DNA of 64,000 bases from an uncultured Acidobacteriota bacterium (GTDB lineage Bacteria > Acidobacteriota > Thermoanaerobaculia > Multivoradales > UBA5704): assembly GCA_963700145.1 (NCBI GenBank), contig OY969474.1, positions 960,001 to 1,024,000 on the forward strand, given 5' to 3'. Shown piece after piece: positions 61,515-64,000 of the stretch. Under the pieces are notes generated by a model. That model did not search any database, had not been told where the DNA came from, and saw only the letters and a program-made list of their open reading frames with translations. Position numbers and translations under genes: made by a program. How positions within the stretch are numbered: the stretch's first letter is position 1; every line of letters starts with the position of its first letter.

Positions 61515-64000
61515 ATGACGGACGGCCGAGACAGCGGGGAGCGGGGACGCCGCCAGGCACTCCTGGCCGGCGCGCTCGCCGCCCTGCTGCTGGCGCCCGC
61601 CGTCCTGGCCGGACGGTGGACGGCGGAGGAGCGCTCGGACCTCTTCGCCGCCGTCGCCTTCGCGCCGACGCCCGGCCGTGTCGAGGCGAACCGCACGGCG
61701 CTGCTCGAGCGAGTGCGGCAGGCGGCGCGCGACGGCGCCCGCTACGTCGTCCTCCCCGAGCTCGCGACCACGGGACGCCTCGACCGCGTCGCCGATCCGG
61801 CGGCGCTGGCCGAGCCCGTGCCGGGCCCCACGACCGACGCCTTCGCGGCGGTGGCGGCGGAGCGCGGAATCTGGATCGCGCTCTCGCTCGCCGAGACCGC
61901 TCCCGCCGCCGCCGGCGAGGGCGCCTATTGGGTGTCGACCGTCCTTCTCGACCCCGCCGGCGAGGTCGCCGTCCTCCAGCGCAAGGTGATGCCGCGCTTC
62001 GACGGCGGCGACGGGCCGGCGCGGCGCGGCGATCCGCGCGCCGTCCTCGACAGCGTCGACGACCGCGGCCGCCGCATCGGCGTGCTGGCGGGCGACGACC
62101 TGCTGGCCGGCGTGCCGCAGCTCGCCGCGCGCGGTGCCGAGGCCATCCTGATCACCGCCGGCTGGACGGCCGGCGAGCCCGTGGCCTGGCGCGAGCGCTG
62201 TGCGCGTCTGGCCCGGGAGCACGCCGTCGACCTGGTCGTCGCCGACCGCCTCGAGGCGGGCGAGGAGCCCGGCTTCGCCGGCATCGTCTCGCGCCACGGC
62301 GAGGCGCTGGGCCCGACGGCCGCGGTCACGGCTCGCGGCGGCGGCGGGCGCATCGGGTCGGCGCTCGGCCTCCCGTCGGTGCCGGTGCCGGCTGCGTCCC
62401 CGGCCTCGCCCGAGCTGATCGAGCTCGGCCGCGCCCTGTTCTTCGACCGCGAACTGTCGCGCGACGGCACCGTCGCCTGCGCGAGCTGCCATCAGCCGGA
62501 GAAGGGTTTCTCGAACGGCGAGAGGAACGGCGCCGGCATCTACCGTCACCCGACGACGCGCAACGTGCCGACGCTGCTCAACGTCGGCTTCAAGGCGGCG
62601 CTCTTCTGGGACGGGTACGCCTCGACCCTCGAGAGCCAGGCCAAGTACCCGACGACGCACGCCTTCGAGATGGACTCGCCGTACCTCGACGAGCTGATCG
62701 GCTACGTGCGCGGGCAGGAGCGGTACCGCCGGGGGTTCGCCGCGGCGCTCGGCAGCGAGGAGATCGGCTTCGACGAGGTGGCGCTGGCGCTCGCGTCGTA
62801 CCAGCGGGCGCTCGTCTCGGCCAACTCGCCGTTCGACCGCCACCTCTACGGCGGCCAGCACGAGGCGCTCTCGGCGAGCGCGCGGCGCGGGCTCGAGCTC
62901 TTCGCCGGCAAGGCGGGGTGCGCCGGCTGCCACAAGGTCGGGCGCGACTACGCCCTGCTCACCGACAACCAGTTCCACAACACCGGCGTCGGCTACGACC
63001 CGGCGACCGGCCGCTTCGCCGACGGCGGGCTGGGCCTGCTCTCCGACGCCAGCCGCATCGGCCGCTTCATCACCCCGACGCTGCGCAACGTGGCCGAGAC
63101 GGCGCCCTACATGCACGACGGCAGCCTCGCCACCCTGGAGGAGGTCGTCGCCTTCTACGACCGCGGTGGCGCCGCCAACCCCGGCCTCGATCCGCGCCTG
63201 CGGCCGCTCGGCCTCACCGCCGGCGAGCGCGCCGACCTGGCCGCGCTGCTACGCGCCTTCTCCGGCGACCGGCGTTTCGACGCCGCAGGGCTGCCGGTCC
63301 CGGCGCCGCGCGCGGCGCCGCTGCCCGAGGGCGAGCTGGCGCGGCTCGCCGTCGTCCGCTTCGCCCCCGCCCCCGGGCGGCTGGCGGAGAACCGGGCCGC
63401 GCTCGCGGCGCGCGTGGCGCGCGCCGCCGGCCAGGGGGCGGCGTTCGTGGTCCTGCCGGAGCACGGCGAGACCGGCCCCCTCGGCGGCCGGCTCGCGGAG
63501 GCGGCGCTGCGCGCCCTCGCCGAGCGCCAGGAGCGCGAGTCGCTCCCGCTCTGGTCGGACCTCGCGCGGCGGCACGGCATCTGGCTGGCGGCGCCGCTGC
63601 TCGAGCACGACGCGGCGGCGGGCAGGCTCTACCAGTCGATCGCCCTCTTCGACCCTGACGGCGTCGAGGCGCTGCGCCAGCGCAAGCTCGCCCCGGACCG
63701 CCGGCGCGGGGACGCGCCCGCGGCCGGCGGCAGCGTCAAGAACGTCGCGGCCGCCTGGACGCCGCTCGGCTGGGTCGGGGTCCTCGCCGGCGACGACCTG
63801 CAGGAAGGGCTGCCGCGCCTGGCCGAGCTCGGGGCCGGCACGGTCCTCGTCTCCGCCTCCTGGGAGCGTGAGGACGCCGTCGACTGGGACGCGCTGGCGG
63901 TGGCGCTCGCCGAGCGCTTCCACGTCCACCTCGTGGTGAGCAACCTGATGGGGCGCGCCGCCGCGGCCGAGGGCGCCGACGACGCGGCCGCGCCGAACCT
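61515..64000 (+). CDS. Secreted fusion: nitrilase-like, di-heme cytochrome c peroxidase/MauG, nitrilase-like (runs off the window)
   Basis: Open frame from ATG 61515: signal peptide; VVLPE...QRK...IGVLAGDD; LGRALFFD.ELS.DGTVACASCH...FWDG...GCAGCH...TPTLRNVAETAPYMHDG; second VVLPE...QRK...VGVLAGDD. Confidence 0.85.
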   Translation, partial: MTDGRDSGERGRRQALLAGALAALLLAPAVLAGRWTAEERSDLFAAVAFAPTPGRVEANRTALLERVRQAARDGARYVVLPELATTGRLDRVADPAALAEPVPGPTTDAFAAVAAERGIWIALSLAETAPAAAGEGAYWVSTVLLDPAGEVAVLQRKVMPRFDGGDGPARRGDPRAVLDSVDDRGRRIGVLAGDDLLAGVPQLAARGAEAILITAGWTAGEPVAWRERCARLAREHAVDLVVADRLEAGEEPGFAGIVSRHGEALGPTAAVTARGGGGRIGSALGLPSVPVPAASPASPELIELGRALFFDRELSRDGTVACASCHQPEKGFSNGERNGAGIYRHPTTRNVPTLLNVGFKAALFWDGYASTLESQAKYPTTHAFEMDSPYLDELIGYVRGQERYRRGFAAALGSEEIGFDEVALALASYQRALVSANSPFDRHLYGGQHEALSASARRGLELFAGKAGCAGCHKVGRDYALLTDNQFHNTGVGYDPATGRFADGGLGLLSDASRIGRFITPTLRNVAETAPYMHDGSLATLEEVVAFYDRGGAANPGLDPRLRPLGLTAGERADLAALLRAFSGDRRFDAAGLPVPAPRAAPLPEGELARLAVVRFAPAPGRLAENRAALAARVARAAGQGAAFVVLPEHGETGPLGGRLAEAALRALAERQERESLPLWSDLARRHGIWLAAPLLEHDAAAGRLYQSIALFDPDGVEALRQRKLAPDRRRGDAPAAGGSVKNVAAAWTPLGWVGVLAGDDLQEGLPRLAELGAGTVLVSASWEREDAVDWDALAVALAERFHVHLVVSNLMGRAAAAEGADDAAAPN

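Follow-up and report, generated by a model that had tools for sequence, protein, structure and literature searches.

A gene that runs off the end of the 64,000-nucleotide stretch of DNA analysed here (the window) encodes a protein in which, as judged from its sequence, an inactive nitrilase-like domain is joined to a MauG-like two-heme domain and the resulting module is doubled, giving a large, predicted exported product that appears to define an uncharacterised protein family. We put the chance at roughly even (about 50%) that the dead nitrilase domain serves a MauG-type oxidant as a scaffold or docking domain, in an exported protein of two modules and four hemes. The propeller partner of the cassette and its PKSE neighbourhood are newly linked here. 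To our knowledge, MauG, MbnH and BthA are the only MauG-type di-heme enzymes studied in depth, and one of the three has no known substrate. The fusion family would add a fourth branch, one that brings its own clues: its partner is covalently fused in some members, its dead-enzyme domain has long been retained in evolution, and it is physically linked to an uncharacterised PKSE cluster in soil bacteria that are hard to culture. It also offers a clean natural case of a nitrilase-fold pseudo-enzyme.

The fusion gene and its nitrilase-like domains

The open frame that the preliminary description reported from 61515 to the window end is borne out (828 codons, GC3 0.96), but its picture of a single peroxidase between two nitrilases is an artefact created where the window stops. 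Recovery of the 3' end, which lies 1105 bases past the window at G000:C1:1025105 (L009:3515-7105), extends the frame to 1196 aa and adds a second di-heme domain (CASCH 907, CGSCH 1053), so that the product consists of two consecutive units, each a pseudo-nitrilase domain followed by a di-heme domain. Within the window the following features of the gene are found:

61515..64000, plus strand: fusion gene (1196 aa in full), codons 1-828, 3'-open at the window end
61515..61613, plus strand: basic and hydrophobic N-terminus (residues 1-33; sequence judged by eye)
61626..62354, plus strand: pseudo-nitrilase domain 1 (residues 38-280; Glu82 at 61758-61760, Lys157 at 61983-61985, Gly193 at 62091-62093)
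62403..63284, plus strand: di-heme domain 1 (residues 297-590; CASCH at 62478-62492, Trp365, Glu385, CAGCH at 62919-62933, Tyr548 at 63156-63158)
63324..64000, plus strand: pseudo-nitrilase domain 2 (residues 604-862, the window end falling at residue 828; Glu649 at 63459-63461, Lys724 at 63684-63686, Gly759 at 63789-63791)

In the portion of the protein encoded within the window, Pfam recognises two CN_hydrolase domains (E 2.8e-30) and one CCP_MauG domain (E 6e-48). In the full 1196 aa, the halves of which are 43% identical across 569 residues (E 2e-105), it matches two stretches each of CN_hydrolase (PF00795, E 1.2e-29) and CCP_MauG (PF03150, E 7.3e-100). A reading of the gene as an artefact or pseudogene is ruled out by its 1196 stop-free codons, its GC3 of 0.96 and its conserved homologues. 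Residues 1-33, read by eye, form a putative export signal or anchor, and the AF2 model places a low-confidence helix at residues 10-31. The whole-chain AF2 model, from which hemes are absent, has a mean pLDDT of 88.5 and a pTM of 0.76, and the high pTM implies a single defined arrangement of the four domains as modelled. The earlier proposals that the pseudo-enzyme domains may form an internal dimer or may bind substrate draw what support they have from this confident model. A complex prediction for nitrilase-fold residues 38-280 against 603-863 gave a score of 0.01, with the mark at 0.32, and has no bearing either way. The preliminary description did not mention the second heme domain, the Tyr ligand of MauG type or the obligatory propeller described below.

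The nitrilase catalytic triad is Glu-Lys-Cys. Both domains of the fusion protein carry the Glu and the Lys, as first described: VVLPE starts at residues 78 and 645 and QRK ends at 157 and 724, and these residues, E82/K157 and E649/K724, line up with the PE and RK in real CN-hydrolases. The catalytic-Cys position is occupied by glycine in both domains (Gly193 and Gly759), within VLAGDD motifs that start at 190 and 756. The proposed register of GxxICYD with GVLAGDD proved right, since in a MAFFT alignment with seven real CN-hydrolases of related genomes the Cys of six falls on G193/G759, and since HMMER alignment to 6ypa/7ovg places G193 on residue 146, the title of 6ypa being that of a C146A variant. 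Among 133 related family domains the Cys column holds Gly in 121, Ala in 10 and Val in 2, a nucleophile in none; it is Gly in all 19 scorable domains from genome loci, so the view of these domains as pseudo-enzymes stands. Glu is kept in 102 of the 133 and Lys in 109, with both present in 13/13 long forms. The position two residues after the old Cys is Asp or Glu in 132/133 domains, and the position directly after it is Asp in 98/133.

The fold itself is retained. Domain 1, matched over residues 40-382, resembles 6ypa with Z 30.8 and rmsd 3.5 over 243 aligned residues, domain 2, matched over residues 606-860, resembles 6mg6 with Z 27.9 and rmsd 2.4 over 237, and 2plq and 5g3o each give Z 29.6. 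Fold-core residues of the nitrilase-like domain are conserved across the family, and the conservation pattern is thus, in sequence terms, one of retained fold with relaxed catalysis. With the nitrilase superfamily amidases (6ypa, 2plq, 5g3o, 6mg6) the domains share the fold (Z 27.9-30.8), the Glu, the Lys and the +2 acidic residue; they differ from them in having Gly for the catalytic Cys, in predicted export and in fusion to a heme enzyme. By profile match and by their alpha-beta-beta-alpha fold they belong to the nitrilase superfamily, but they are predicted to be non-functional members because the catalytic Cys column is Gly here and never Cys in 133 domains.

That these domains are still hydrolases, working through another nucleophile, is extremely unlikely. 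The Glu and Lys in both domains of the fusion protein would fit such an activity, as would a Ser one residue ahead of the old Cys in 57/81 single forms. However, the Cys column is Gly, Ala or Val in 133/133 domains, the neighbouring Ser swaps with Ala, Trp, Phe and Pro, Ala being the residue in each domain of the fusion protein, and real members have a buried Ile or Val just ahead of the Cys. Next to the dead domain in sequence, after its own family, come heme-less tandem CN-hydrolase proteins of 540-650 aa, of which we know of no characterisation. Their second domain has Gly at the Cys column, like the fusion protein; unlike the fusion protein, they have no hemes, and their first domain keeps E-K-C and is predicted to be active. 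By sequence, they show that the presence of a dead nitrilase domain beside another nitrilase fold in one chain has a precedent.

Di-heme domains and family history

The bCcP/MauG domain reported between the nitrilase domains is intact (CASCH 322, CAGCH 469), as is its counterpart beyond the window, all four CxxCH motifs of the protein being complete. The inter-heme Trp (W365/W950) and the distal Glu (E385/E970) are invariant, residues of these types being found in 135/135 family heme domains. Tyr548 and Tyr1136 fall in the column of the MauG heme ligand Tyr294, Y548 being aligned with 3l4m chain position 294, and this column is Tyr in 39/39 heme domains of doubled forms. Both heme domains are therefore, as read from these residues, intact and MauG/MbnH-like, with the MauG-type ligand pattern. 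In the available parts of PMC6405878 and PMC11892367, Tyr-His ligation is described as a hallmark of the bis-Fe(IV) class. The column holds Y 48, F 20, H 10, L 4 and one gap in single forms, and H 11 and Y 2 in long forms; because the Tyr is not universal, part of the fusion family may work differently.

The closest solved structure to the heme domain is 6e1c (E 3.2e-44, Foldseek rank 1, Z 32.6), an MbnH-type entry entitled 'MauG-like protein associated with microbial copper homeostasis'. NCBIfam scores lie under the curated cut-offs for both MauG (TIGR03791, 219.8 against 443.85) and MbnH (TIGR04039, 212.2 against 362.85). MbnH is a periplasmic di-heme enzyme that likewise has Tyr at the MauG Tyr294 column, and, as in the MbnH/MbnP, CorB/CorA and SACCP/MopE systems, the fusion protein is encoded beside a dedicated partner protein. 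It differs from MbnH in its extra nitrilase-fold domain and tandem duplication; its partner is a glutaminyl-cyclase-fold propeller, with no MbnP-like gene in the cassette, and its surroundings are a PKSE neighbourhood whereas those of MbnH are methanobactin genes. MauG (3l4m), which acts on pre-methylamine dehydrogenase, shares two c-hemes, the inter-heme Trp and the Tyr294 equivalent (fold Z 30.7), but lacks the extra domains, and no mau genes were seen within the window.

Canonical bCcPs (3o5c, 1iqc) have the same fold, heme motifs, distal Glu and Trp, and differ from the fusion protein in lacking the accessory domains and the sporadic distribution and in having Met where it has Tyr. We take the Tyr548 column to be the Met ligand position of bCcPs, the bCcP alignments ending 1-3 residues before it. 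The protein could on this likeness be an ordinary periplasmic cytochrome c peroxidase that detoxifies peroxide and carries decorative, decaying domains: canonical bCcPs are close in fold (3o5c Z 32.8) and sequence (E 5e-41), the distal Glu and inter-heme Trp are common to them, and family members are annotated solely as "cytochrome c peroxidase". We regard this as very unlikely, given the Tyr in place of the canonical Met ligand in 39/39 doubled-form heme domains and an accessory domain that outlasted an old duplication and stays folded and conserved in 114 cluster representatives. Nor does it sit well with the rarity of the gene, which is present in just 1/40 relatives and 1/400 other genomes of the phylum sample.

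To the family we assign those 114 cluster representatives, which come from metagenomes and fall into size classes of ~600 aa (single), ~900 aa and ~1150 aa (doubled). In the heme-domain tree the second halves form their own clade (0.998) within a monophyletic fusion family (0.998), and Gly is already present at the Cys column in single-module relatives, which upholds the earlier suggestion that the Cys loss preceded the duplication. Outside the family, the nearest outgroup to the heme domain carries a fused copper chaperone domain, SCO1/SenC (PF02630). A related-loci scan by whole-protein alignment returned only standalone ~300-aa peroxidases, drawn by ubiquitous heme motifs, and was set aside. 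Full-text searches of the literature turned up no description of a CN-hydrolase/CCP fusion, although supplementary tables, for example the similarity-network tables of PMC6405878, could list the family; nor did they turn up a glutaminyl-cyclase-like partner or a PKSE cluster with a di-heme peroxidase. Far from being unique, the architecture is fairly common in metagenomes. The preliminary description had counted against itself an architecture that is common and unlinked to PKSE, or another nucleophile in the triad; common it is, but it is linked to PKSE and no other nucleophile is found at the triad position, so that this objection does not apply.

The propeller partner and the PKSE neighbourhood

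Upstream of the fusion gene, the window contains:

26175..27224, plus strand: BTAD/SARP-type regulator, upstream of the PKS
27478..30258, plus strand: FG-GAP/UnbV-ASPIC protein, upstream of the PKS
30197..37469, plus strand: PKSE-type iterative polyketide synthase (KS-AT-KR-DH), then a hotdog thioesterase
57839..58870, plus strand: lipoprotein-like protein 'A', with weak likeness to the propeller (28% over 134 aa, E 6e-4)
58905..60518, plus strand: DHOR-family di-heme protein, 537 aa, kept upstream in doubled-form loci
60539..61435, plus strand: partner gene, 298 aa, directly upstream of the fusion gene; predicted-exported five-bladed beta-propeller of glutaminyl-cyclase fold

A paralogue of protein 'A', 'X', lies directly past the fusion gene, beyond the window. 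The propeller is N-terminally fused to the module in 13/13 long forms (41-54% identity) and is encoded by a separate gene upstream of it in G037 and G378, and the module follows the propeller in 15/15 testable propeller loci. As far as gene order can tell, the pairing is thus shown to be obligatory, with the propeller either encoded upstream or fused. In the available part of PMC3912023, MauG-type enzymes are described as typically co-transcribed with their protein target, as are CorA-CorB and MopE-SACCP, and what is available of PMC11951088 gives MbnP-MbnH as another such co-transcribed pair. Neither an obligatory propeller nor linkage to a biosynthetic cluster would be expected of a housekeeping peroxidase.

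The propeller model has 20 strands and matches 3mbr with Z 22.4 and rmsd 2.7 (213/236 aligned; 21% sequence identity) and 3nok with Z 21.2, the next match being at 18.5. At E <= 10 the glutaminyl-cyclase family is absent from its Pfam matches, which consist only of PQQ_2 (1.2e-6), and a PDB sequence search gave nothing significant, the best match being diisopropylfluorophosphatase (E 0.012). Protein-atlas matches, with a score of 0.92, serve as leads only, and in a profile search the remaining domains of fused rows drowned out the propeller. Hydrazine synthase beta/gamma (5c2v) also pairs a propeller with a CCP-fold di-heme unit, to which it is fused in some organisms, but its propeller is seven-bladed, its heme ligation is different and it occurs only in anammox bacteria, whereas the cassette gives no sign of nitrogen chemistry. 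The matches to it are weak (NCBIfam E 1.1e-10; Z 19.2; 5c2v_B among the Foldseek hits of the propeller).

Six residues, W206, H74, H258, Y81, Y91 and Y289, are invariant in 16/16 propeller sequences, W206 lying within an invariant W-x-D-E. The propeller might accordingly be a substrate in cofactor maturation, with the tethered MauG-like domain oxidising an invariant aromatic residue such as Trp206 to a kynurenine- or quinone-type cofactor; the oxidised residue and the invariant His74 and His258 could then make up a metal site like those of MbnP, MopE and CorA. The MbnH-type nearest solved relative and the copper chaperone domain fused to the outgroup both favour this, and, in the available parts of PMC6405878, PMC11951088 and PMC3912023, all characterised Tyr-His di-heme enzymes of known function modify a Trp of a neighbour-encoded protein. 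However, the propeller fold is unlike MbnP, MopE and CorA, no copper-related gene was seen within the cassette, and the permanent fusion of a 600-aa maturase to a substrate that is modified once, as in the 13 long forms, would be uneconomical. We know of no precedent for such a fusion, and consider cofactor maturation unlikely.

In the window, a candidate enediyne-type PKSE cassette has all three kinds of gene that we looked at: the KS-AT-KR-DH synthase, the adjacent hotdog thioesterase and the UnbV-type protein. Homologues of the synthase are 50-66% identical and about 1930-2390 aa long, and the FG-GAP/UnbV-ASPIC protein accompanies the PKS in 4/4 other genomes examined. The fusion cassette lies 4-43 kb from a PKSE-type synthase in 7/9 genomes: 23.5 kb here, ~4 kb in L112 and L114, and 19, 35, 38 and 43 kb in G436, G435, G433 and G434, respectively, a count that overstates independence because the linked genomes are partly related. 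In the remaining two (G037 and G437) the PKSE is on a separate contig and no distance is obtainable. A syntenic block of ~45 kb is common to G433 and the window. PKSE occurs without the cassette in 14/15 PKSE-positive relatives, and the cassette is therefore not a core PKSE gene. A HEAT-repeat neighbour has no NCBIfam family and uninformative atlas scores (0.81), and scanning the operon region for promoters and terminators gave nothing beyond shuffled expectation.

A proposed role for the dead nitrilase domain

The di-heme enzymes RoxA and oleate-diol synthase oxygenate or cleave unsaturated chains. By analogy, the remodelled nitrilase pocket (Glu, Lys and Gly-Asp-Asp) might bind a small molecule and present it to the heme domain, which would oxygenate or cleave an amide, acyl or polyene chain from the neighbouring PKSE pathway. 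Besides the frequent Glu and Lys, the G-D-D after the old Cys is conserved beyond chance, and the acyl-binding nitrilase-fold proteins vanin-1 (Z 27.5) and Lnt (Z 20.5) are among the fold matches. Moreover, the cassette is linked not only to the PKSE and thioesterase but also to an SRPBCC/polyketide-cyclase-like protein and an MFS exporter, and fatty-acid-oxidising relatives of di-heme CCPs exist (PMC4496055, available part). Several members of the doubled subfamily have, however, lost Glu or Lys, so the old pocket is not uniformly constrained; the fold match to RoxA is weak (Z 10.9), and, in the available parts of PMC6405878, PMC11892367 and PMC11951088, the characterised cases of MauG-type Tyr ligation point to proteins, not small molecules, as targets. 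A ligand-binding pseudo-enzyme is thus a doubtful reading.

The preferred reading, a scaffold or docking domain, is argued from the features that the domain has lost and kept and not from an observed interface. Each module would combine a dead nitrilase-fold domain with an intact MauG/MbnH-type di-heme domain that has a Tyr-His six-coordinate heme, an inter-heme Trp and a distal Glu. By analogy with MauG, MbnH and BthA, the heme domains would do the chemistry, passing from peroxide through a high-valent state to oxidation of a bound target at a distance. The nitrilase domain, having lost hydrolysis, would be a rigid platform that pairs heme domains, as a homodimer in single-module forms and permanently fixed by duplication in the fusion protein, and it would also dock the propeller, either as the oxidised protein or as a substrate-holding unit. 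Because of the PKSE linkage, the leading candidate for the substrate is a polyketide-derived molecule or a protein for its handling. Retention of Glu and Lys in ~80% of domains and in 13/13 long forms appears to exceed what a pure scaffold would need and leaves room for ligand binding.

We tentatively suggest, as a possibility only, that propeller, dead nitrilase adaptor and MauG-type bis-Fe(IV) di-heme oxidant make up a hitherto unrecognised three-part periplasmic oxidation machine on PKSE clusters of soil Acidobacteriota and their like, in which the heme domain would either install a Trp-derived cofactor in the propeller or oxidise a PKSE-derived polyene held by the propeller and the dead-nitrilase pocket. 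In either case the MauG family would gain a new function and the Cys-less nitrilase domain its first assigned role. The record of one carrier of the cassette, Bryobacterales bacterium F-183, bears the title of a strain and not of a MAG, so that genetics may be feasible.

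A doubled two-domain module

The reading frame that begins at 61515 is open to the window end (828 codons) with a GC3 of 0.96, as expected of a real gene in a genome of 75% GC. The window corresponds to G000:C1:960001-1024000, and beyond its end the full gene comprises 1196 codons (locus L009:3515-7105). Pfam recognizes two CN_hydrolase (E 1.2e-29) and two CCP_MauG (E 7.3e-100) domains in the product, in the order nitrilase-fold, di-heme, nitrilase-fold, di-heme. Since there is a second di-heme domain and the halves are 43% identical across 569 residues, the peroxidase flanked by two nitrilases of the preliminary description was a truncated view of a two-domain module that is duplicated in tandem.

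With the whole protein as query, the doubled architecture was found in 18 cluster representatives (965-1393 aa), and the first nitrilase-fold domain as query retrieved 18 representatives (50% identity clusters) at E < 1e-30. When a single-module relative served as query, 169 sequences matched at E <= 0.001; the best 120 of these 169 include single forms of ~600 aa, 13 proteins that are 835-921 aa long and several, 707-755 aa in length, that end in a SnoaL/DUF4440 domain. Single modules with this extra domain are P0048, P0097, P0100, P0101 and P0104. The family has at least 114 representatives: 81 are single, 20 doubled and 13 long with an N-terminally fused propeller. This count leaves out SCO1-fused and standalone di-heme proteins. 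Their source annotation is 'cytochrome c peroxidase' and, once, 'cytochrome c peroxidase/predicted amidohydrolase'. The distribution is sporadic: among 40 related genomes searched, one (G037) has the fusion gene and all four of the same genus lack it, and of 400 other genomes sampled from the phylum three matched, with a true fusion in G378 only.

Nitrilase-fold and heme domains

Both nitrilase-fold domains carry the motifs first described for them, VVLPE (Glu82, Glu649), QRK (Lys157, Lys724) and VLAGDD (residues 190-195 and 756-761), and the proposed register of GVLAGDD against GxxICYD is borne out by three alignments that place the Cys column on Gly193. These are a MAFFT alignment with seven real CN-hydrolases of related genomes (PE / RK / ICYD), six of which carry Cys opposite Gly193, an HMM alignment, and an alignment to 6ypa and 7ovg, the former naming C146A in its title. 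Ala192, the Cys position in a HMMER alignment to formamidase 5g3o that contains a one-residue gap, was rejected in favor of Gly193.

The triad is dead. The Cys column holds Gly in 121, Ala in 10 and Val in 2 of 133 family domains, so that no other nucleophile occupies it, and in genome-derived loci it is Gly in all 19 scorable domains, two truncated rows being left out. The catalytic Glu and Lys are kept in 102 and 109 of the 133 domains, respectively, and the acidic residue at the old Cys +2 in 132. The domains nonetheless match nitrilase-superfamily structures very closely (Z 30.8 to 6ypa, 29.6 to 2plq and 5g3o, 27.9 to 6mg6), in keeping with the pseudo-enzyme originally proposed: folded, its nucleophile gone and the rest of the triad slowly going.

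A sizeable heme-less family of 540-650 aa with tandem CN-hydrolase domains (P0152, P0156-P0164 and others; L106:5244-6335, L107:5798-6889) keeps Glu-Lys-Cys in the first domain, whereas in the second the Cys column holds Gly or, in some cases, Ala; these proteins look like a live domain and a dead partner within one chain.

All four CxxCH motifs of the fusion protein are intact, and every one of 135 family heme domains has the inter-heme Trp and the distal Glu. Tyr548 aligns to MauG position 294 (3l4m chain numbering, aligned stretch 262-303), where Tyr294 is the axial ligand of MauG's six-coordinate heme. All 39 heme domains of doubled forms have Tyr in this MauG-type ligand column; single forms have Tyr (48), Phe (20), His (10), Leu (4) and one gap, and long forms His (11) and Tyr (2). 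Tyr-His ligation is described as setting MauG and BthA apart from Met-His peroxidases (PMC6405878), and an Fe(IV)Fe(IV)=O state as being formed by MauG, MbnH and BthA alike (PMC11892367). The closest solved structure is the MbnH-type 6e1c (E 3.2e-44; Foldseek rank 1; Z 32.6), titled 'MauG-like protein associated with microbial copper homeostasis'. The fusion protein scores well under both the NCBIfam MauG and MbnH cut-offs; its heme domain is a separate branch, an orthologue of neither. In the nearest outgroup (43-46% identity; P0020-P0022, P0133, P0138, P0142) the di-heme domain is joined to the copper-chaperone domain SCO1/SenC (PF02630).

In a heme-domain tree (FastTree, LG, 314 columns) rooted on the SCO1-fused relatives, the fusion family is monophyletic (support 0.998). 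Within it, the doubled proteins' second halves group with the three 'single' proteins P0113, P0114 and P0123 (0.998), and the sister of this group comprises the remaining singles, the long forms and the first halves (0.79). Gly occupies the Cys column on both sides of this split, so the Cys had gone before the module was duplicated, in the order suggested; the duplication is old.

The propeller partner and the polyketide synthase linkage

The gene order around the fusion is as follows.

57839-58870, 'A', lipoprotein-like protein (~340-360 aa)
DHOR di-heme protein
60539-61435, propeller (298 aa)
61515 to beyond the window end, doubled fusion
L009:7105-8190, 'X', paralogue of A (~340-360 aa)
L009:8187-9383 (window coordinate 66187-67383, just past the window), HEAT-repeat protein (~400 aa), weak HEAT_2 match
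AHSA1/SRPBCC protein
MFS transporter
PD40 propeller

The propeller, directly upstream of the fusion, has a borderline PQQ_2 as its sole Pfam match. In all 13 long forms among the best 120 of the 169 matches, the first ~300 residues are 41-54% identical to it, and the gene upstream of the G037 single-module gene is 59% identical. In G378 the propeller also lies upstream of the fusion, with one small ORF between them (L105:8548-9030 (-), 161 codons, hydrophobic N-terminus, a putative gene). A propeller-only genome search found 16 loci, mostly in Acidobacteriota MAGs, and a nitrilase-fold/di-heme gene follows in 15 of 15 judgeable loci (3 doubled, 3 fused, 9 separate); the 16th stops at a contig edge. 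The linkage is strong.

The AF2 model of the propeller (pLDDT 83, 20 strands) most resembles two bacterial glutaminyl cyclases in fold, 3mbr (Z 22.4, rmsd 2.7, 213/236 aligned) and 3nok (Z 21.2), with Z 18.5 for the match that follows. Its sequence matched no glutaminyl-cyclase family in Pfam at E <= 10. Across sixteen sequences of the propeller 45 positions are invariant, among them His74, His258, Trp206-x-Asp-Glu, Tyr81, Tyr91 and Tyr289.

A and X bracket the DHOR, propeller and fusion genes, and A shows weak similarity to the propeller (E 6e-4). Locus L110 has both A and X, and L111 one of them; with doubled forms, DHOR and A recur together in L110 and DHOR only in L109 and, at the locus edge, L108. 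The HEAT protein (64-71% identity in 7 of 16 propeller loci and G037) is more conserved than the fusion protein; it has no NCBIfam family, informative protein-atlas match or visible export signal.

The same window holds a putative biosynthetic cluster.

26175-57113, whole cluster: BTAD regulator, FG-GAP/UnbV-ASPIC protein, PKSE-type synthase, hotdog thioesterase
30197-37057, KS-AT-KR-DH synthase, with the FG-GAP/UnbV-ASPIC protein and BTAD regulator before it and the thioesterase after
Further members: S9 peptidase, FG-GAP/UnbV/redoxin proteins and several conserved proteins without a family, including 40075-41796 and 48831-49655

The PKSE lies 23.5 kb from the cassette of propeller and fusion module. 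In L112 and L114, homologues of the synthase C-terminal 622 residues (46% identity) precede the propeller by ~4 kb. Five further cassette genomes all contain a synthase homologue (50-58% identity, 1932-2100 aa), on the propeller's contig in four, at ~19 kb (G436), 35 kb (G435), 38 kb (G433) and 43 kb (G434), and on a different contig in G437; the linkage genomes are partly related and these counts are not independent. G433 shares with the window a ~45-kb gene run that begins with the UnbV-like gene and ends with the MFS transporter, and much of 26175-57113 is syntenic with it. G434, G435 and G436 keep two sub-clusters, rearranged: UnbV-like, PKSE and thioesterase; and propeller, fusion, HEAT, (AHSA1) and MFS. 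In G037 the PKSE homologue is on another contig and a different PKS stands directly upstream of the propeller (L100:20-6768, modular-type, AT-DH-KR-ACP with an LPG_synthase_C-like insert, accompanied by a class-V aminotransferase). Among the 40 relatives, PKSE occurs in 15 but the cassette in one, and the cassette thus accompanies only some PKSE clusters, as an accessory.

A proposed mode of action

All parts of the system belong to known folds; their combination, the propeller partner and the PKSE link were found nowhere described in the papers searchable. The domain layout, the dead triad, the MauG-type ligand column, the propeller and its linkage are shown directly by the data. From them we infer that the heme domains would be the catalysts, acting as MauG-type remote oxidants, and the nitrilase-fold domain a platform. 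A platform role is suggested because the fold core is kept while the catalytic residues drift, and because the heme-less proteins nearest in sequence pair a live domain with a Gly-substituted one in tandem. Nitrilase-superfamily members are known as obligate dimers through the nitrilase fold, and duplication of a whole module is expected when a homodimer is made permanent. The whole-chain AF2 model has a pTM of 0.76, a value that could not come from four domains placed independently of each other.

For the propeller, precedent favors a role as oxidation target, since MauG-type enzymes are described as typically co-transcribed with their protein target, as in CorA-CorB and MopE-SACCP (PMC3912023), with MbnP-MbnH as a further such pair (PMC11951088). 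A role as substrate holder is favored by the propeller-module fusions and the PKSE link.
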